A DNA stretch of 59,114 nt, filler included, from Asterionella formosa (taxonomy: Eukaryota), in NCBI GenBank assembly GCA_002256025.1. It is 7 parts of 7 records of this genome, joined end to end, with 100 filler letters (N's around TTAATTAATTAA, not from the genome) between each part and the next. Parts side by side here need not be neighbours in the genome. Positions count along the whole stretch, not along the records: positions 33,877 to 42,225 come from NKIB01012273.1; 6 more parts are not named here. One strand, given 5' to 3'. A model generated the notes under the pieces. The model saw nothing but the letters and a program-made list of their open reading frames with translations, was not told where the DNA came from and did not search any database. How positions within the stretch are numbered: the stretch's first letter is position 1; each line of letters starts with the position of its first letter. Below are positions 8,378-50,770 of this stretch, in pieces. The translations under genes and the position numbers were made by a program.

Positions 8378-8477
8378 NNNNNNNNNNNNNNNNNNNNNNN
8401 NNNNNNNNNNNNNNNNNNNNNTTAATTAATTAANNNNNNNNNNNNNNNNNNNNNNNNNNNNNNNNNNNNNNNNNNNN
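8378..8477. other. Artificial contig linker
   Basis: 44 N + TTAATTAATTAA (stops in all six frames) + 44 N. Confidence 0.99.
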
Positions 8478-16845: not shown

Positions 16846-16945
16846 NNNNNNNNNNNNNNNNNNNNNNNNNNNNNNNNNNNNNNNNNNNNTTAATTAATTA
16901 ANNNNNNNNNNNNNNNNNNNNNNNNNNNNNNNNNNNNNNNNNNNN
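16846..16945. other. Artificial contig linker
   Basis: N44-TTAATTAATTAA-N44. Confidence 0.99.
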
Positions 16946-25309: not shown

Positions 25310-25409
25310 NNNNNNNNNNNNNNNNNNNNNNNNNNNNNNNNNNNNNNNNNNNNTTAATTAATTAANNNNNNNNNNNNNNNNNNNNNNNNNNNNNNNNNNN
25401 NNNNNNNNN
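25310..25409. other. Artificial contig linker
   Basis: N44-TTAATTAATTAA-N44. Confidence 0.99.
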
Positions 25410-25642: not shown

Positions 25643-28600
25643 CTTTGAATTCAAAAAGAGTCCAATTAGAATTAATATTGTTGATGTCCTCTCAAGTTCC
25701 AGTGGTCCCATTGATGAAGGATAACAACATAGTACTAAACATCAAGATTCAAACTTCTCAAGCCAGGTCGACATTTGGAGTCTTACAGCAAAGATATGAT
25801 CAATTGACGCTCAGGGGAAGCTTGTTTATTGATTTCCTCAGTAAATCCTGTGATATGGCTAACACATATATCTTCAGTCCAGCAGATTCCTTGCTTGTTC
25901 ACCTACTGCTACAAAAGATGACTCACAGATATCGTCTTGTTTGACTGGATCATGAGCGTTGCAATACATTCAGATGCTCAGTCCCACCATAACAGTCTCA
26001 ACAAGAAGTCATAGTGATGTGGCTGGAAGATTACCTTCTTCATGATATCTCTGAGAGTCAATAACAGTGGCTGGATGCCATGATATTACTCAATAAAACA
26101 TTTGAACATGTTTATAATCGACTTCGCTGCCTGTCTCAAGACCTTAAAGAAGCTCCTAAAACTCATGATAACTCATCCACAAGATCAAGAGGTTTCCGCC
26201 AAGGAAGATTTGAGGTTGATTGTCATTTTGTTTGATCGACAATGCGTGGCAACAAGTGTTTGAATGGAACAATGAAAAGAACACAAAATAATTGATTCGC
26301 TTGGTTTTGACTTGCTTCGAGAGTCAACAATCATTCAAAGATCAACTCAAGCACATCCTCAAGCATGAGTTCTACCATAAGCCAAAATCGACTTCGCATT
26401 GCTGACGGCAATCGTGTTACGTCGAGAGAACGCGCGTGCCTGGTGTCAATTTTCTAACACAAAATCGTAAATAAATAGTTGAAGTTGAAGACAATTCCAT
26501 GACGCATCAAGAAAATAAGCGTGACTGGTGTCAATTTTAACAAAAGATCGTCTTCGCATTGCTAAATACAGTCTTGTGATGTATCAAGAGTACAAACACC
26601 ATTTCAAGCGTAAATTTGTACATGATAATTTTATACTCAGTGGCAATGGCCGGGCACATGCATTTTAATGCAACCGACCACGCATGGGATATGAAACAAC
26701 GGTCAAACATAAGGTTTATGGAGTTAACATTACTAACACTAATAACCTTGTTCCTGTTCGGACTCCTGTTCCTGTTCCTCTGGCGTAGAAATTCTACACG
26801 AAGCAAATTATCATACTAACACAGCTAACTCTATTCATGTTTTTTTCTTCCGTGCATGTTTTATACAAGCAAATCCATGGGTTAACCCTATGATGATGTC
26901 TGGTTAGGGTGCTATGCCGAGGGCCATACCTGCCAACTATTATGAATCTGCCCAGGAAATTTTAGTGGTCATGAACCCTCCTGTTGGTCAGTTAGTGGCC
27001 GATGTGCCTAATAAAAAATCAGCAGAATGCTGAACAGATCGCCTTAACAGAAGTATGTGCGACAATAGCAACAATGCTATGATTTTAATAATATACATAT
27101 ATATATATATATATATTTATGAGCGACAGCACATTGAATATGTCTTACGTCAATCATTACCTGAATAACTTTTCTTATTTACAGGATAATTACAGGTTGG
27201 ATATCACCGCTATTGTAACACAGGATATTTTAAAATGCAAAGAATGCATAAGCTTAATTGCATTTCATTCTCATCTCATAAGCAACCCAAGCAAGGACTG
27301 GTGGCTGCGTTGTATATGCATGTCATAAGATGAATATTATTTGATTGCTGTGGGCCTTGATTTTTAACTTATGAATGGATTGTAATTCAGGACATTTCGT
27401 TGTAAAATCGAACATTTATAATTAATATATACCATGCATAGCAGGTATGATCCCATCTTTCCTTCTTTTGCCAGTACTCCGCATGATGCTCCCAAAATTT
27501 AATCCGTCAGCTTGTATCTTGCAACAGAAGTACCTTTTCTGCGAGTTTGACGATTTGTCCAGCTGATTAATTTATGATGGATAATTTACAAATACCATGT
27601 CCTGTCTGTATGGTGGATATATCAGTGTTTTTCTGCATGTCATGCATTCCTATAATGATACACACAAAACATTTGCACAATGTTTTGTTATATTTTGATA
27701 CAGCCACCTATCAAGGATTATGTTTACACATGGAACGTTCATGCTCCTAACTATACAGATACGGAAATATGCTGTTTTGGCAGAAGTCCTCCAGCACCAT
27801 TCTATATGAAATGGTCTGTTAAAGAAACTGACTCATTGGGATATCGATAAACTCCAACCGACACTTCAAATTTTGGTCTTCAAAACTTAAAACAGGATTG
27901 AAATGGAACTAGTCCATTTGTATGGTTACCTATGCATACATCAACAAACTTTTGCATCAATGAAAGCATTGTTAGTTGCAGATACACTCATGCGTTATCC
28001 TGATCGTAATTTTCCTTTCCATTTTTTTACTAATGTTTCTGATTTTCAATTAAGAAACTTTCAAAGAATTTCGCTCTATGTCCTTGAATGCGGTTCTACA
28101 TGTTGACACTGAACATCATATTTTTATCTTTATTACCCTACACAGAAACTCAGCGTGTTCTCAGGTAGAGGATTTATATTGAAGAATATCTTCTCACTTT
28201 TCACAATATGAAGGGTACTGATAATGTCAAATATTACAGATTCTATCTCTCGCCTCCCGAGGCTTGAGTCGTTGGTGGGGGATGATATTGGACCGAAATC
28301 TTCCGCATCAACATCCATTTCTACTTTCTCAATTGAAGTAGATGATGAACCTTTGTTTACCTGTTCCCTCAATCATCCAATTTTGGCAGACAATATTCAA
28401 TATCCTCTGGATTATAACTCCATACATGATAGACAATTGCTAGATATACAATTGATTCTCAATCAAATAACTCATCTCATTCTCAATCAACAAACCAAAC
28501 ACATCCGTTAAAATTTCCCTCTATCAATTTTCATCATATGCATTTAATATATTTTGTGAAGAATCCAGGAGATACTTTGACGTATTGTTATTCCTACATC

Positions 28601-29614
28601 ACTATCGAATCCTATTATTTATTGGTATCATCAGATGTTAGCTCATGTGCGTATGACAAGATGAGATGCCACATTTTCTACACATTTTTACTATCCTCCA
28701 TTAAGAGCAAGAGTGGAACATATTGCAAGCATATATGAAACATGTCAAAACGTACAAAATTACCTGATGCTTGGTTTTGGTGAACTTCCAACAAGGAATG
28801 CATTGTTATTACAATGCTCAGAAGTCACAGTGGATTTCATTGGTCCATGGAAGATAACAGTGACTGCACAAGCGATTGAATTTCATGCTCCAACTTGAGT
28901 TAACACAGTCACCAATTTACCAGAAATTTCACACATCAATAATAAGACATCAGAATATATTGCGATGAAATTTAAAAATGATTGGTTAGACAGATATCTC
29001 CGTCCAGAAGGTTGTATACATGACTATGGAGGTCAATTTACTGGTATTCCTTTCATACACATGTAAGTGTTGAATGGAATTAAAATTGGGACCATTACAG
29101 TCAAGAATCCACAAACAAATGCTCTCCGTAACGTTTACATCAATCTATCAGTAACAGTCTATGTATGAGTTATGTTAAAGGCTCATCCTCCAATCAAGGA
29201 ATTTCAAGTTCAGAATATTGTGGATACCAGTTTGCTGCATCATATGCAGCTCGAGCTACAATTTATGGTACATTGTGTATTTTCACCAGGAACATGGGTT
29301 TTCCAACATGATTTGATTACAGATATGTAATTGATATTGGGATATCAATGTCGATAAGTGATAATTGACAAATGACTACTTCGTGATAATGTCCGCCGTT
29401 GTTCTTGCAATTACAAAGTTCTTGATGAGGTTTTAATCCTATTAGATAATCCTACTACCTTGGATAACCATGGACGAGGTCCTTATTCTATTTATTCAAG
29501 TACATGCCAATGGTACAGTTACTTTTCAACAAACTATGCATACTACGGAACGAATTAATATTCATTACATCAAACCTTTTCAAAGGTAAAAGGTTTTCCC
29601 TTGGTGTGGGAGAG

Positions 29615-29798
29615 TGAGCGATCTTGCGCATCGACACAGATGTATATAGGGTTAGTGTTATATCATATATGTATCAGAACTCAATAATGAGAGAACTCGA
29701 CTAACCCTCATTGTATACTTTGGTGTCGACTTAGAGAACGAGTTACACACAAGGATTAACAAATAAGCTCATATATTCAACAAATACTACTACTTCTA
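29615..29798 (+). repeat. 3' LTR, lacking the last 13 bp
   Basis: Matches the 5' LTR up to TACTTCTA and then diverges. Confidence 0.93.
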
Positions 29799-33776: not shown

Positions 33777-33876
33777 NNNNNNNNNNNNNNNNNNNNNNNN
33801 NNNNNNNNNNNNNNNNNNNNTTAATTAATTAANNNNNNNNNNNNNNNNNNNNNNNNNNNNNNNNNNNNNNNNNNNN
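33777..33876. other. Artificial contig linker
   Basis: N44-TTAATTAATTAA-N44. Confidence 0.99.
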
Positions 33877-34880
33877 CTATAGACAAGTTGTCTAGCAATA
33901 GTGCAGCTGAATTTGCTGCGATTCGTCTAATTTACAATCAGCTTTGCGGTGACAATCGCATTTTTTCAATCATGTTGCTTGCTTCCAAGTTGAAGCACTT
34001 CTTGGGACATGATGTTAATTTGAGCATCATGCAACAGCCTGTAGCTCACTGCTGTACATCACAAAGCATCATGTATCATATTGTATCACTCACAAGGCAC
34101 AAAAGCAACATGTGCTATGTAGCTACTGAGTTGTGTCACCATGCAGCAGTATCTCCGGTATGTAAACATACAGTGCATTTCTTGAAGGGTCACATATCAT
34201 AAACAAACATTTATTTCGATTTTTCGGTCAGTCTCATGCAAACTGATAAAGGTGCACAAACCATCTGTTTACACACCAATGGCAGCAGCAGGCATTGGAC
34301 AGTGGTATTGTTGGGCATTTCAATGTCTGAAGAGACGATTGCTCCTCTTGGTTTTTTCGAAGGAGTACCTGACACCAAGATCCAGAGGTAATTCAACAAT
34401 CAACAATCAACAATCAACAGTTTCTTGCCTATCCTCAGGAAATGGTTTATTGTTGTCAGGCAAAGGCGTGGGTCGATGAGTCAGCGTTTGGGCTTGGGAT
34501 TTGGGAAGTTTCGAAGCCATGGACAATCAGCCATGATTCTCAACCAAGCTACCTGCTAATGGACAAGGTCCAGGTGCATTTGACAGCAACAAGCCTCAAT
34601 GCAACAATAAAGGACTGTGGAACTTTTATGGGTTTCATTTGTGAAGGTACACCTACAAACTTCAAGTTTTTAAGTTGAGGTAAACAAGCCCTTTAAAAGG
34701 TTTGATAGGGATGCCCATAAGGACTGGATGGTTGCCCATCCTCATGGCACAAGAAAGTCAAATGACAGGATGTTACTCTGTGGTTCTGGACAGATTAGGA
34801 GAAGGTCTCTGAATCTACCATTTTAAACACTTGGAATTCAGTCGGTTTCATTGACTGCTGTGACCATGTATATAGATATA

Positions 34881-34942
34881 GGGGAATGGCTTAGTCGTTA
34901 GCACACATGTTGTGGTGGCAGGTTCGATTCCTGCATTCTCCA
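34881..34942 (+). ncRNA. tRNA-like head (not a functional tRNA: shortened anticodon arm)
   Basis: Acceptor stem GGGGAAT/ATTCTCC, D stem GCT/AGC, T arm GCAGG-TTCGATT-CCTGC; only 62 nt with no 7-nt anticodon loop. Confidence 0.6.
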
Positions 34943-35132
34943 CCTGTCTTTTTCATGTAGTCCCTACTAGGATTCCGGGGGGTGCAGCTGACGAAAAGAC
35001 AGGTCCTGTTGTACCCTACAAACAAATAAAACCTGTACTAATTGTGTCCATTTATTCATTTATTTGGGCACGAGTGCGATTATTGGATAGCTTTAACATA
35101 GCTACTATAAGATTTGATTGATAATTTTTTTC
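34881..35132 (+). mobile_element. tRNA-derived SINE-like retroposon (252 bp) with a 19-bp TSD
   Basis: Exact direct repeats GACCATGTATATAGATATA at 34862-34880 and 35133-35151. The insert starts with a tRNA-like fold carrying an A box (TGGCTTAGTCG) and a B box (GGTTCGATTCC). Confidence 0.8.
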
Positions 35133-36056
35133 GACCATGTATATAGATATAAAGATACCAAGTATGTTCATACTAGTATTGGCAAGGCTATCAGGGCGGA
35201 GGGGGTAGTGGTTCTTGTGTCTGTTCATCCATGTATATACTTCATAGGCATAAGAGTCATTCAGAAAATCTATTTGTATTCACAAGTTGAAGTAATTGTC
35301 AGCAAATCCTAGTCATTGTCAGCAGGTTCTTAATGTTGAAAGAGATGATCCCTGTTTGTATTCTGAAGCTAGAAGACTGTTTGCTAAACTGGTTCATCAG
35401 TCTGCAAATCTTAGTCATGTTCAGAGACTGATTCTGCAAATTGTCATCTGTCGATAAGCATAACATTTTTCTAAATTACTTAAGGAATATTATTTCCATC
35501 GAAAGCTGGCCTATCTTGTCCAGCAGGCATGGGACAAATCATTGGGAGTGAGTTGAAAATGACAAGGTGTGGTGCTAGTACCAGACCTTCCGGGTTTACT
35601 ACAGGTACACGTACCAGCCATTGGACTACCGGTATGCATTGTAGATTACCTTAGATTACCGGTGCCTGCAAATATAAACTCGGAGTCGACATCAGGTCGT
35701 GGAAAGCTAGCAGGCATCTCGCCGTGCCTGCGGCCAAGGTCTCTGAGTTTATGGCGCGCGGCCGGTAAGCAATGTGAAGCATCGTCCTCATCCATCTTGT
35801 GTTCAGCCATGAGCATCATGAAATATGGGTCCCAACGCAGTATTGGTACTACCGTACATAGAGAGAAGCATCGCGTCCAGTTGTTGCTTGTTGAGCCATC
35901 TCCAAATCGGGGCTTGTGGAACGATAATTACTGTATGCACCATTCACCAATTCTTACTTTTTCTTCCGTCGTCAGGAATAGCCAAGAAAGACACTTATGT
36001 TAGCACTAGTCCCTCGTTTCACATCTTTCATTCCAATTTAATGCGGGCAGTGTTGT

Positions 36057-37049
36057 ATGACGCCAATTGACTTGGTCCTGGTGGATGTTGCGGCAGCAAT
36101 GGGCGATGATAATTCTTGCGGCAGAGAAAAATTCCACGACCTAATCGGCCAAGTTTTAATGGATTGTTCCACGGCGGAAGCGTTTCTTGTCGGTGGCGAT
36201 GCATGCAACAACGCGAAGTGGAAGGATTGCTGTAGATGCCTGTTTGTCCATTGCCCGGAAGGGCCCGTTTTGAGTGAAGAAGAAGTAGCCGAGCGCCTCA
36301 AGAAGTCAGTGGCAGCATTCATCAATCCCAATGACCAGTATCTCCAATTGACATCGCTTTTACTCAAAAGCCAAACATTTCATCTAGCGTTTGCAACAGA
36401 AAACGACCGTCCAATCATTCATCTCCCAAGGACAAAAGCGGGCAAGCCTTACATACCCGGAAGAAAATCGTTTCAGTTTAGCGTCTCTCATCAATTTCCC
36501 TTTGCTGGAATTGCACGCTGTCGAACCAAAGGAAAGGGGAGGGTGGGAATGGACATTGTTGTGTTTGAAACGCTCAATACAAGACTCTACAATAACCCCG
36601 AGGATTTTGTGGAGGTGTTTCGATCAAACTTTGCCGAATCAGAATGGAATGCCATTCTAACAGCGACGGATACCGTCAAGGAGTTCTACCTTCGATGGGC
36701 GATAAAAGAAGCATACACCAAGGCTCGTGGGCTAGGAATGAGTTTGGCTTTCTCCTCCTTTGAAACAAAGTTGAATGGCGTCGATGGTAGTCTCTGGGAA
36801 TATGTAGCTACAACTGACAATTGGTGTTCACTTTCTGGCGAAGTCTTTTCATTCAAGAATTGTCGAAAGGAAATGTGGCACTTCTTCTTTCATAAACTTA
36901 AATCCGGTGCTGAGCTGAAGGGTTGCATTGCAGTATGCACTGGACCAGTAGCTTTGACGAGGCTTCCAAATCCTGAACCCTTTCCTGAGATTACATGGAC
37001 AAGTATCCACGATTTATCGGATTGGCACTACAAAAGCTTGTTGAACTAG
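36057..37049 (+). CDS. 4'-phosphopantetheinyl transferase (Sfp/Lys5/AASDHPPT type, 330 aa)
   Basis: RTKAGKPY, FSVSHQ, VGMDIV and FYLRWAIKEAYTKARGLG (WxxKEAxxK) motifs. Confidence 0.92.
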   Translation: MTPIDLVLVDVAAAMGDDNSCGREKFHDLIGQVLMDCSTAEAFLVGGDACNNAKWKDCCRCLFVHCPEGPVLSEEEVAERLKKSVAAFINPNDQYLQLTSLLLKSQTFHLAFATENDRPIIHLPRTKAGKPYIPGRKSFQFSVSHQFPFAGIARCRTKGKGRVGMDIVVFETLNTRLYNNPEDFVEVFRSNFAESEWNAILTATDTVKEFYLRWAIKEAYTKARGLGMSLAFSSFETKLNGVDGSLWEYVATTDNWCSLSGEVFSFKNCRKEMWHFFFHKLKSGAELKGCIAVCTGPVALTRLPNPEPFPEITWTSIHDLSDWHYKSLLN

Positions 37050-38464
37050 TGCAGCAAAAAGATTGAATAACTATTGTACATTTGTAGTATCTTAACGAAA
37101 TAATTCAACAGACAGCAACCTATTGTAAATGTACTCTGGTTGGAGTTATGTTCGACCAGATCCATCCTTCCATTAAATCCCAAAAGCGAAGTGTTGCACA
37201 CTGTATGTACTGTTTTTGTTTTGAGCGTCACTTATGGTTAATCGGAGACATGGAGATCAATTTTGGTTTGAATGCGAGATGTTGTGATGTGTCTGCAGCA
37301 AGGAGCAAAAATATTGCTTTTTGTAGAGGGAGTATCATCTAATAGTGCCGTGTATGTAATATACGACTGAATGCCATTGTCAATTTCAATTGCTTACCGT
37401 TGGTGCCATGATTTACTAATTCTGATACGATACTAAAAACATCATCGTCTACTATTCTCAACAAAAGTCTTGTTTTATTGATGTGCGTCGTTTCAATTTA
37501 TGTACCGGTAGTGGTTACCAGGTACCTGGTACCATGAGCAAGATGACCGGTTTATGGTCTACTCCGTCGAGTGCCAGGGTATGGAGTACTGGTACCAGTT
37601 ATCGCGCAGGTAATTAGGTCGTCTGTGTCGTCGCGCAGAACATGGTAAAATTGGGATAATGACAACCGCTCGAAAAGCTTCAAAATTTAATCCATAACTA
37701 CGTTATTGAAGATATCTTATGTTTCTCTCAACGCAGGGACGGTTATTTTCTCTAAGTAATGGCAGCAACCTTGCGTTGAACGGCAAAAGATCCGAATGTG
37801 TGCCATGAATGTCTGTATATCGCATTCTATGTGCCTGTCCGGGCCTGCTCCACAAGAAAAGGTCATGACGAGGTGCAGGACAACACTCCCTTCATTATAC
37901 AGATCAATAATAGCGTTTGTTCGGGAATCGTCAAATCGCATTTTCTTCAGCTCATTTGTAGAGGTGAGTGTTCCATGATGACTCTCTCCAGTGGTAGGAC
38001 GAGGCAGGAGAGACGAAATTGGCAGTGCCGGCATGTTGACAACGACTCATGAATTTCAGAATGAGTCGTTTAAATGGGCAATGCATTTTTGCGTAGCATC
38101 GGTGTTTAAGGACGATTCAAATCGATGCACATTTATTGTGGATGTCGAAAACTGCCAATTGCCTTGTGGCGTTGCGCGGAAGAGTTACATAAGGGACTAT
38201 GCTACGATAGGAACGCTCAGCGCCGTCCCGTGTTGCTCGTCATGTGTGATACACTCGACGCCCGACAAGCACAGAGACTGGTCGAGCCAGCAAATGTAGA
38301 ATGCGCAAAAGCGGAACTAGAAAACAAAAAAGGCTTCGAAATCATCTCTCCTTCCAGCGAACACTTTGCCGTTGTGTCAATAGCAGCTCGTCTCATTGTC
38401 ATGTCTGGTACTCACACTGTTCATCTCAACATACGCATGGCATTACAGGACATTGAATGTGATC

Positions 38465-41400
38465 ATGACTGACGTCAATGAAGAAAAGCGAATGGATGAA
38501 GAAATTAACAAGCTAAAGTCGCTAGAACCTGCCGACAAGGAAGAGGAACCACTCAGACCATCTCCAACATTGGCTAATCGGCCTTCATCAGTGGCGTCGA
38601 CGCATTCAAATACATCGTCGTGTACACCTCGAACCACCACGAGTCGTCGTGGAAGAACACGGAGCAGATCTCCACCAACAATGACTAGTCACTCTAGAGC
38701 GACATCGAACCTGGCTGATCATCCCTATCATGCTGAGAATTATGAGAGAAGTGGTCGGAGTTCGCCGAGATCCCCTCGGAATCTATCGTCAGCCGCTGCT
38801 GCTGCTGCTGCAGCTGCAAAGGCGATATCCACAGGAGGTAGAAATACATCGCCTTGGGCTTACGAGAATGTAGCCGAGGGTGGACAACAACACAGTGAGC
38901 AACGTGGGGACATCAGGTATCATCAGGGCTTTGACAATATGTTCGGGGGATCTACTAGCTGGCCGGGCGAAGACCAAGCTTCCCGGCGCAATGGTCACGG
39001 TCGTGAACAGATGAGAGATCGACATGGATACTCAAGACATTCACAGTACCCTAAACAAACTCAGTCCGCATCTTTAGCCGAACCCTACAGTAGCCGTAGT
39101 GCTCCTCACTACGATCAATATGGAGCACCTTACGATCCCGGCTACGATGATCGATATCGGGAATCGCATGATAGAGGATCGTATGATCAAGAACATCCCC
39201 GGAGAATCGGCAGGAATTCACCTCAAGAGTCTCCTCCTGTTTATCCGCCTGGGCCATATGGCGACCGTCATCAACGTCATGGCAGTGGAGATCCTTATTA
39301 TGGAGGGGCTGGCAGTATGGCCCCGATGGAACGCGATATAACACAAAGGGAAAAGGTTCATGGCTATAGCGACTCTTTCTCCTCAAAAGGAATTTCTGGA
39401 CATAGAGAAGCAGGATCTTCTACCACAGTGAAACGAGGAGGAGGTACTAGTCGAGTCATCGGGACACCTACTCCAATACATGTGCCACGAGCTGCGGATC
39501 CGCCAAGAAAGCATTCTTCACGTGTTCATCCAGCCGGAACTCCATCGTCTGTCTTCCGCGGACGTCCGGACGAGGGACATGGGCAGCGATCGTCGCAAGT
39601 TGATTCCCCTCAAAAAATTCTCCTTTCCCTTCGGACACCAACAACTTCGTACGATGAGAGGGACGCTCCAATGAAACAGAGAAGCGATGTGGGCAATAAA
39701 GGATCTCGTGGTGCCACTCCATTGAGTCCGGAGGAGCCTCCGCAGATTCATCATGCCCACAACCAGCATCAAATGGATCACAATATTTTCTTCGAGGTGC
39801 GTTTATTTCGTTGGGAAATATGCTGAAGTATTCTTTATTCTAACTCTTCCCTTGATCTGTCATTTATGACACTGCAGAGAACAAGTCCCGGGGACCATAC
39901 AAGACAACCGAGTGGTACTCTCGAGATGGCTCCTTCCTTCTCATTGTTCAATCAGTCGTTCGATAGTCTGGGCGATGCAGCACAGTATTTGACTGTTGGT
40001 GGTCCGCTGGATGTAGCTTTTCACTCAAACTCATTCGGAGCGCCGTTAGCTGGCGGCAGTGGAGATAACACAGACAATCCGCATTTTCTGCCGAACTCAC
40101 TTGAAAGGGGGCTCTCTGGAATCGGCTTATTAGGCAATCCTTCAGGTGGGAATTTAACGTTTGGCATGAGTCCAGTCAACTCGTTCGGAAATGGAGCTCC
40201 ATCAAGTGGTGGCAACATGATCCTGGGCGGTCCAGATGCTCAAGTCACAAGTCCAACACAAATGCTAAGCATGTATCCATCTTACTCTGGAGGATACAGC
40301 CAATCATCAGGACAGCAAGCTCCTTTCAGGGCTCGAGGAAGCGGCGAGCAACCAGCCCGAAGTATGAGCAGTGGAAGTGGTGGTGGGATTTACGCCCGTT
40401 CGTTCAATGAAGGATCTCCTCATATTAACTATCATGGTCATACGGGCCGCGATGCCCCTTGTTCACAGGACGATGGCCCTCCTAGCTTCTACATCTTTCT
40501 TGCCAAAAACAAAAGCGCTTTCATTAAGTGTTCATTCTTGCTCCCTGGTTTGAAGGCTGCTCTTCTTGAATCACCTATTTCTGATGCTAAGAAATCAGGG
40601 GACGAAGGCGATAGGTCAAAGAAGACTCTGTCTAGCAGAAGGAGCAGATTCCCGGATCCATCTCCGCAGGATACAGCCATTGCCCTCCGTCGTGTGGCGT
40701 GTGCCATATGCGCATTTGGTGGTAGCATCAGTGGAGACCGAGCGATTGCCTCGTCGTCTGATGCAAAATCAAATGAAAGCGGAACTCAATCCATTTTCAG
40801 GGGGAAAGATGGCGGCACCACCCCTTCGCTAGCCACAACTGTGACCCCTTCTTCTTCAACCGGATCTCCGGCTGGAGCGGGCGGACAAAATCGTGAGAAG
40901 CTGAAGTACGACGAGGCGTTGCCGGGACGATATTACGAAAACGAGAACAGGCTGTCGTGGGAATTCGAAGAGTCTCCTCCTGTTGGCTGTTTTTCTGAGG
41001 ACGAAGAAGATGCACGCAACCGGAGCATGAAGGCAGAGGCGAGTGGACAAATTGAGATCGATGATGACGACGAAGACCATGATGAAGAAGACGATGATGA
41101 CGGAATGAGCTCACCTCACCTTTTGAACAATGGCTCTCTCTCAGAACATGACAAGAAGAACGACGACAGCCCATCAGCTTCTGATCAGCCCAAGATGCGC
41201 TATCGATGCAAGCTTTGCGGACAACCAAAACAGAATCACACTTGTCCCTACCAGCAGTCTCTACAACGTAGCATTGGTGTCATGATCTATCCTGCTGTAA
41301 ACGCGTTCACGTCTAACGAGCCTGGAGTGCTTGCCCCAACCCTAACCGATATGAATAATTTTGTATCATCGGGCTGTGATGATATGTCATCTGCCGACTC

Positions 41401-42070
41401 ATCGCCAGCTCGCCCTACCCCTGATCGCCAAGGTAACGCGCCAAAAAATTCTACGCCTAGTGGTAGCAGTGGGCCCACAAATGTGACCCCAGAAACGATG
41501 CGTTCACCCACAGGAAATTCTCCGGGGTCGTCATCTTTGTCAACTGGAAGTGGTACATCTCCACAGCGCAACCCATTCCGCACTCCATCATCCAAGAGAA
41601 AAAGCCGTAATACTGCAAGCCTCTCGGGTGGCGGAGCGATGAGCCACCGTGAAGCATCGCCTCCTCGCAGTGGTGGACGTAAACGTCATTTGACACAAGT
41701 GACAGCCGGTTTGGACGATAATGCAGACATGCTGTTTGTTGAGGTCATGGACCTCAAGCCCGAGCAATTCCGTATGATCACTCCTTCCAAGAAGACATCT
41801 CTTCCAGATGCTTACACGTATCCATCACTTCCTCTCCCATACGCTCAACGCAAACGTTTGAGTGACAATCTCTTCTCGCTTTCGAAGGAGATCCCCCAGC
41901 TCACTGACGAATGTGCCGTTGTTCTTCGAAAGGCGCGAGTGAAGGATATGTGGGATCTTGCGGTTGCAGAGCTCATGACGCAGGTGGTCGTAGTGATCCA
42001 CTGCACTAATGGTGACTGTCGTTTTGAGGGCTTGCGTCACTACTTGCTTACTCTTGGTATTGCTTGCTAG
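38465..42070 (+). CDS. Large, mostly disordered protein with a CxxCGxPKxxHxC Zn-binding-like motif, 2 exons (38465-39796, 39878-42070; ~1174 aa)
   Basis: Two long ORFs joined in phase by a GT-AG intron at 39797-39877. Contains RYRCKLCGQPKQNHTCPY, an acidic tract, basic NLS-like KRKSR and an ordered C-terminal segment. The start codon is the first in-frame ATG. Confidence 0.85.
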
Positions 42071-42225
42071 TGGGCGAATTCATTTTATGCAGAATGCCCC
42101 AGATAAACCCGGGAAGGGGGAATACAATAAGACATAGTAATCGAATGCGCAAAGGGACTATAATACATCTATCGTACCCTCCTCAGAACATTGTAAAACC
42201 GGCAGCGTAGATATTCAATTTTTTT

Positions 42226-42325
42226 NNNNNNNNNNNNNNNNNNNNNNNNNNNNNNNNNNNNNNNNNNNNTTAATTAATTAANNNNNNNNNNNNNNNNNNN
42301 NNNNNNNNNNNNNNNNNNNNNNNNN
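42226..42325. other. Artificial contig linker
   Basis: N44-TTAATTAATTAA-N44. Confidence 0.99.
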
Positions 42326-50670: not shown

Positions 50671-50770
50671 NNNNNNNNNNNNNNNNNNNNNNNNNNNNNN
50701 NNNNNNNNNNNNNNTTAATTAATTAANNNNNNNNNNNNNNNNNNNNNNNNNNNNNNNNNNNNNNNNNNNN
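50671..50770. other. Artificial contig linker
   Basis: N44-TTAATTAATTAA-N44. Confidence 0.99.

Follow-up and report, generated by a model that had tools for sequence, protein, structure and literature searches.

In animals and plants, SINEs influence how genes are regulated and how large genomes become. According to the available parts of two papers, they have long been held to be absent from most unicellular eukaryotes (PMC7466962; PMC5859163). The closest described systems are the tRNA-derived SINEs gathered in SINEBase, whose accessible text describes a SINE as shorter than 1 kb and interspersed, present in at least 100 copies and sharing 60% identity or more with a tRNA across 60 nt (Vassetzky and Kramerov, 2013; PMC3531059). 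In the same text, mean SINE length is given as 253 nt, the commonest pattern (41%) is a tRNA head followed by a body whose origin is not known and then a tail, and promoter boxes count as an indication only (PMC3531059). Among stramenopiles, the infSINE families of the oomycete Phytophthora infestans are short interspersed elements likewise, known here by citation alone (Whisson et al., 2005, cited in the accessible part of PMC5063351). Oomycetes and diatoms are distant lineages, and common ancestry of their families is not expected. Some of the P. infestans families are reportedly tRNA-related.

For diatoms, the accessible parts of the genome literature hold brief entries: 13 'putative SINE' with 1,454 bp in all in P. 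tricornutum, where the non-LTR row of the repeat table contains only 'putative SINE' (PMC5859163); a mention of SINEs in Cyclotella cryptica (PMC7466962); Skeletonema costatum, named for SINEs, with SINEs reported in only two further diatoms (PMC8147415); and a mention of an RTE-like non-LTR family in T. pseudonana (PMC2806351). A full-text literature search returned only such automated tallies and no paper describing a tRNA-derived SINE with target-site duplications in diatoms, in agreement with the remark in an earlier note on this DNA that tRNA-SINEs are little described in this group.

The locus described here lies in a 59,114-nt stretch of DNA from Asterionella formosa (assembly GCA_002256025.1), which was analysed as a whole and is referred to as the window. 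Like the tRNA-derived SINEs of SINEBase, the element has a head-body-tail build with a tRNA-derived head, is interspersed and high-copy, and carries a variable simple tail; at 252 bp, it also falls next to the mean length of 253 nt given in the accessible text of that source. It differs from them in its host, a unicellular stramenopile alga, in a head that has no anticodon loop and is followed directly by a T5 run and a conserved hairpin, and in a tail that ends in T rather than A. It is the host group and this head-terminator-hairpin arrangement that give the element its interest. With the diatom tallies, it shares host group and label. In their accessible parts, however, those tallies reflect automated classification with tiny numbers and are given without heads, boundaries or duplications (supplementary tables may hold sequences), whereas structure, boundaries and duplications are laid out here and the copy number apparently reaches hundreds or more. 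The element is thus of an ordinary kind, a tRNA-derived SINE, that is hardly described in diatoms, and it may represent a candidate new SINE family.

Boundaries and build of the insert

Each feature placed by the earlier note, i.e., the duplication, the tRNA-like head, the hairpin, the T5 run and the tail, was found at its position, and all of them are given below on the plus strand. The left copy of the 19-bp target-site duplication (GACCATGTATATAGATATA) occupies 34862-34880 and is 100% identical to the right copy at 35133-35151 (GACCATGTATATAGATATA, 19/19). The score of this repeat was reached by 0 of 2000 shuffles in local alignments of 30 bases either side. It cannot be extended, the adjoining bases being T/C before and G/A after, and the insert between the two copies is 34881-35132, 252 bp. 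The insertion may be recent, a dating that derives solely from the perfect 19-bp duplication. The motif of the duplication occurs a third time, in part (CCATGTATATA), at about 35224-35239 (35229-35239), a position given as 94 bp past the right repeat; the host sequence therefore has some internal repetition.

The tRNA-derived head spans 34881-34942 and comprises a 7-bp acceptor stem with a G3-T70 pair, a D arm, a mini anticodon arm and a T arm. The Rfam tRNA model (RF00005) matches exactly this interval over model positions 1-71, with 26.0 bits and E=0.0039 against a gathering score of 29, and in this alignment the anticodon arm is shortened to a few pairs. The expectation that the insert begins at base 1 of a tRNA-like fold, with a 7-bp acceptor stem and a shrunken anticodon arm, is confirmed by the match from model position 1. 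A box-A-like motif (TGGCTTAGTCG, 34887-34897) and a box-B-like motif (GGTTCGATTCC, 34921-34931) were read by eye against the general consensus sequences, and their spacing is shorter than in a normal tRNA gene. Scanned at gathering thresholds, the whole window gave no Rfam match. ARAGORN found no tRNA gene across the window, a silence that is expected because the head has no anticodon loop. Judged by the marks of a functional tRNA gene (full cloverleaf, 7-nt anticodon loop, detection by tRNA finders), the head is not one. The element also cautions that, in diatom assemblies, a tRNA-like match can be the head of a SINE and not a tRNA gene.

The relationship to tRNA is also visible in related copies from metagenomes (loci L001-L005, described below). 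The L003 head scores 30 bits on the Rfam tRNA model, above the gathering score of 29; in the Rfam scan of the five loci, an E-value of 0.1 was reached only by L003 (tRNA) and L002 (a weak tmRNA-like match of 16 bits), and not by the L004 head. For the L003 and L004 heads, the minimum free energy fold is a cloverleaf with a mini anticodon stem of 4-5 bp and a 4-nt loop. For the window head, the minimum-energy fold is not a cloverleaf, and the centroid retains the acceptor and T stems. In a blastn comparison of the head with phage genomes, its 3' half was best matched by an annotated tRNA-Ala (90% over 30 nt). Against this annotated tRNA-Ala, from a Streptomyces phage, which serves as a stand-in tRNA and not as the diatom parent, the window head is identical at 46 of 63 positions (73%), and four heads range from 70 to 76% over 63 aligned nt; the alignment contains one 10-nt gap, which takes out the anticodon loop. 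The head keeps the G3-T70 pair, which we take to be a mark of alanine tRNAs. The parent was thus probably an alanine-type tRNA, as a lead drawn from the sequence. The parent-tRNA search suggested in the earlier note has therefore settled the tRNA relationship, through Rfam and the phage tRNA-Ala alignment, but has yielded the isotype as a lead only.

Directly behind the head, a long hairpin spans 34942-35004. Its arms, 34942-34952 and 34994-35004, are 11 nt each and 100% complementary, in full support of the hairpin noted previously at this place, and the extended hairpin has a predicted energy of -26.4 kcal/mol (z -2.56). The stem is kept in 5 of 5 copies, and one pair changes from UA to CG on both sides in L004 and L005, an observation that is anecdotal at n=5. 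Within the 5' arm lies the internal T5 run (34949-34953), at a distance of 7 nt from the head; four of the five copies have an internal T run of at least five. The T5 run looks like a tRNA gene's own terminator carried into the element. The earlier caveat that it could terminate Pol III early holds insofar as the run is real and kept in most copies, but early termination itself stays at the level of a possibility: the run could act as an early Pol III terminator, with transcripts of about 73 nt.

The body (35005-35110) is conserved between copies, aligns in L001, L003 and L004 and has a high summed contig depth; beyond the hairpin, it gave no match in the searches made. The A/T-rich tail (35111-35132, GATTTGATTGATAATTTTTTTC) was also confirmed as previously noted, and consists of GATT-like short repeats followed by T7 (35125-35131) and C. 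Tails of other copies are similar and differ in length and end. The tail belongs to the element, since the loose ends of contigs, with a consensus at 35097/35100, continue as a comparable A/T-rich tail that closes with a T run. It has no significant blastn match elsewhere in the window, and Tandem Repeats Finder reported inside the insert only a 16-bp two-copy row.

Dispersal, related copies and an insert-free site

The abundance of the element was assessed with contigs assembled from public sequencing runs. Among the 24 runs listed in a search with the 1401-base stretch 34300-35700, 20 hold some of the stretch and 6 hold half or more; the matching runs are freshwater, lake and algae metagenomes. 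Contigs were placed at a likeness of at least 80% for three DNA runs (X1, X2 and X13) and one RNA library (X17), and 6765 X1 contigs fell on the stretch; of the runs with small shares of it (X10-X16 and X18-X20), X13 alone was used. In X1, summed contig depth reaches 1.21 million within the insert (34911-34957) and 0.35-0.69 million across the body, against 4.7-10 thousand in the upstream flank (34770-34863) and 18 thousand in the downstream flank (35146-35192), a drop of about 100-fold from the insert to its immediate flanks at both edges. The depth profiles of X2, X13 and X17 are shaped as in X1. At position 35034, the majority letter is carried by 96 distinct X1 contigs. Unique flank contigs of X1 with perfect matches have a depth of about 800-840; set against 0.35-1.2 million, this gives about 400-1300 copy equivalents, in a metagenome-type run to which other organisms contribute. 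The element thus appears to be present in hundreds to about a thousand copies, with the reservation that a sum of contig depths does not equal a copy number and that the top bin, covering the T arm, may draw in other tRNA-like sequences. In the RNA library X17, the contigs cover the element in roughly the proportion seen in the DNA runs and are therefore uninformative on specific expression, as they are on transcript starts and ends.

The contigs also place the 5' boundary of the element. In X2, 16 contigs diverge just before 34881, and the upstream flanks differ between copies, because the sequences of these loose ends agree to only 0.43. In addition, the match of X13 record 14 starts exactly at 34881 after 129 unlike letters, and that of X2 record 28 at 34882.

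Related copies were sought with a 21-mer of the head scanned over metagenome contigs, which yielded five loci, L001-L005; two patterns searched against viral contigs and a 22-mer of the head searched against prokaryotic genome contigs gave no hits. Within the window, neither blastn (word size 7) nor a five-copy profile found another copy, the only other profile hit having an E-value of 0.78. The contig pile-up on the insert and the five related metagenome loci nevertheless answer the concern, raised in the earlier note, that the segment might be single copy. L004 holds a complete copy (519-762, 81% identity). Those in L001 and L003 are cut off where the contig ends; L005 carries a partial copy, and L002 nothing but the head. 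Pairwise identity is 77-92% among the window, L001, L003 and L004, and 66-73% for pairs with the partial L005.

A genome-wide search for copies with distinct duplications of their own had been proposed. In the five loci covered here, L004 provides one such case besides the window: its flanking repeat abuts the element and matches at 11 of 12 positions with one gap. As 60 of 2000 shuffles reach its score, this duplication is only modestly above chance. Both complete copies (2/2) are accordingly flanked by duplications, 19/19 in the window and 11/12 in L004, in a sample of five loci only.

In the marine contig L002 (556-630), the head has a shortened anticodon arm and 88% identity over 75 nt, and the sequence behind it is completely different. 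L002 may be a different SINE family that shares the head; a 188-aa reading frame on the opposite strand, which abuts the head, has no clear family. The freshwater loci L003 (487-669) and L005 (353-520) have a downstream gene (minus strand) in common, but the distance of the element from this gene and its state differ between them. In this comparison, the L003 copy counts as full. That of L005 is 5'-truncated and joined to the end of a GAT-repeat coding stretch, where the final residues and the stop of a reading frame come from the element.

An insert-free counterpart of the locus was recovered in run X2. One contig, with a depth of 89 that corresponds to the single-copy level of the run, joins 34880 to 35176 through 18 letters, 14 of which match 35152-35175 by eye. 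This contig corresponds to a diverged form of the flanks that has the 19-mer once and lacks the insert; it represents the empty site of either a paralogue or a relative. The earlier note had proposed a check for the empty allele; a homologous insert-free site is thereby at hand, but it belongs to a paralogue or relative and is not established as an allele. Joints from 34878/34879 to 35230 were also considered as empty sites and were dropped, their sides being only 21-22 letters long and falling on the partial third copy of the motif. Insertions of the element supply markers with which strains and populations of freshwater diatoms can be studied.

Class, probable route of insertion and alternative readings

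Altogether, the tRNA relationship, the exact boundaries, the unlike flanks, the copy number, the duplications and the insert-free homologous site bear out the interpretation as a tRNA-derived SINE. We consider it very probable that the insert (34881-35132) belongs, as one of many copies, to a family of tRNA-derived SINEs in a freshwater diatom and moved by the classical SINE route. Measured against the SINEBase description, the element is 252 bp long (below 1 kb), interspersed and non-tandem, with copies in unlike flanks; its copy equivalents in X1 (about 400-1300, subject to the caveat on summed depth) exceed 100; and its identity of 46/63 to the phage tRNA-Ala stand-in exceeds 60% over 60 nt. 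Flanking duplications of variable length, as expected of a SINE or retroposon, were found in both complete copies (2/2; window and L004), and their unequal lengths (19/19 vs 11/12) fit retroposition.

Along this route, the head would be what is left of a tRNA, probably of alanine type, after the loss of about 10 nt from the anticodon arm, with the box-A/B-like motifs kept. Pol III would initiate at base 1 from the internal box A/B promoter, and transcription would end at the terminal T run. By target-primed reverse transcription, the reverse transcriptase/endonuclease of an autonomous non-LTR element would then insert a copy of this RNA at a staggered break in the chromosome, and fill-in of the stagger would leave the 19-bp duplication. 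The structural steps are shown by the sequence; transcription by Pol III, the partner's identity and its activity, and the way in which synthesis is primed are inferred. A clear-cut tRNA-SINE in hundreds of copies in a diatom would imply productive non-LTR retroposition in the lineage, and it points to an autonomous partner element.

The alternative that survives best also accepts a true tRNA-headed retroposon, but one moved by a non-standard route, either by a non-LINE enzyme (e.g., Penelope-like) or from a template made other than by Pol III owing to the T5 run. The conservation of T5 directly behind the head in four of five copies speaks for it, as does the lack of a LINE in the window, where Pfam assigned no transposon protein domain (reverse transcriptase, endonuclease, integrase, transposase or any other) to the 54 reading frames scanned (15 + 39 ORFs). 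Furthermore, LINEs are reported to be scarce in model diatoms in the accessible parts of two studies (PMC2806351; PMC5859163). Against it, the window copy and the X13 and X2 contigs start precisely at the first tRNA position, which fits an internal-promoter Pol III transcript and is hard to derive from read-through Pol II transcripts, while the terminal T run would serve as a final terminator. Moreover, Rfam gave no match to a hammerhead or other ribozyme family in the insert region. On balance, we regard a non-standard route as unlikely.

It is much less probable still that the segment is only part of a larger repeat, either the 3' end of a LINE or a module of a composite spanning about 34441-35568. 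This reading draws on the neighbouring stretches 34441-34600 and 35240-35568, for which these runs likewise indicate a high degree of repetition (summed depth of 0.12-0.34 million in X1). However, depth falls about 100-fold from 34911-34957 to the intervening 34770-34863 and 35146-35192, copies differ in their upstream flanks, the window flanks are common to none (0/5) of the metagenome loci, and a perfect duplication encloses the insert, which begins at position 1 of the tRNA. The earlier note had named membership in a larger element as a result that would speak against a SINE; the divergence of contigs at 34881 and the fall in depth at the edges make this very unlikely.

Weakest of all, and barely credible, is a non-autonomous DNA transposon (MITE-like) or local DNA duplication in place of an RNA-mediated insertion, for although direct repeats flank the insert and the partial third motif copy CCATGTATATA lies nearby, cut-and-paste transposons have terminal inverted repeats and fixed short duplications, whereas the insert has no terminal inverted repeats (its sole inverted repeat is the internal hairpin), its duplications are long and unequal (19 bp and about 12 bp), and it carries a tRNA-derived head with promoter boxes and a T/A-rich variable tail.

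Within the preferred reading of a tRNA-derived SINE, a more far-reaching proposal joins several observations: in diatoms, this would be the first SINE family with a defined structure, a high copy number and recent activity, with Pol III units of two outputs and a modular head. We hold this joint proposal to be doubtful. If it were true, an alanine-type tRNA would have lost its anticodon loop and the parent gene's terminator (T5) would have been folded into the conserved hairpin. Each copy would then mostly yield a tRNA-like RNA of about 73 nt, with the full-length retroposition template arising only on read-through, and the L002 head with its different body would mean that the head is shared by several diatom SINE families driven by an active non-LTR element.

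Surroundings of the insert in the window

The window consists of seven pieces of about 8.35 kb each, separated by 100-letter fillers (8378-8477, 16846-16945, 25310-25409, 33777-33876, 42226-42325 and 50671-50770), with 528 N in all. The insert is located in the fifth piece (33877-42225), and adjacent pieces are not necessarily neighbours in the genome. The insert is surrounded by a repeat-rich intergenic patch. The two highly repeated flanking stretches, 34441-34600 and 35240-35568, look like other repeat families, possibly truncated. Contigs placed at 35282-35537 show numerous internal skips of 56-254 bp, and other copies extend beyond 35568 into conserved sequence that is absent from the window.

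About 900 bp downstream of the insert, a reading frame on the plus strand (36042-37049) encodes a 4'-phosphopantetheinyl transferase (Pfam ACPS and AASDHPPT_N), and the long reading frames at 38384-42070 have no Pfam family. The window also encodes a conserved sugar epimerase whose named relatives are exclusively from diatoms, the best being that of Stephanopyxis turris (82%), which marks the host as a diatom. More than 2.5 kb is common to two pieces of the window at 93-97% identity (1-2262 vs 26371-28615, and 2258-2549 vs 29507-29798), and several repeats of 185-200 bp recur at four places at 97-99% identity. Both kinds of repeat may stem from segmental duplication, represent copies on different haplotypes or belong to other mobile elements.
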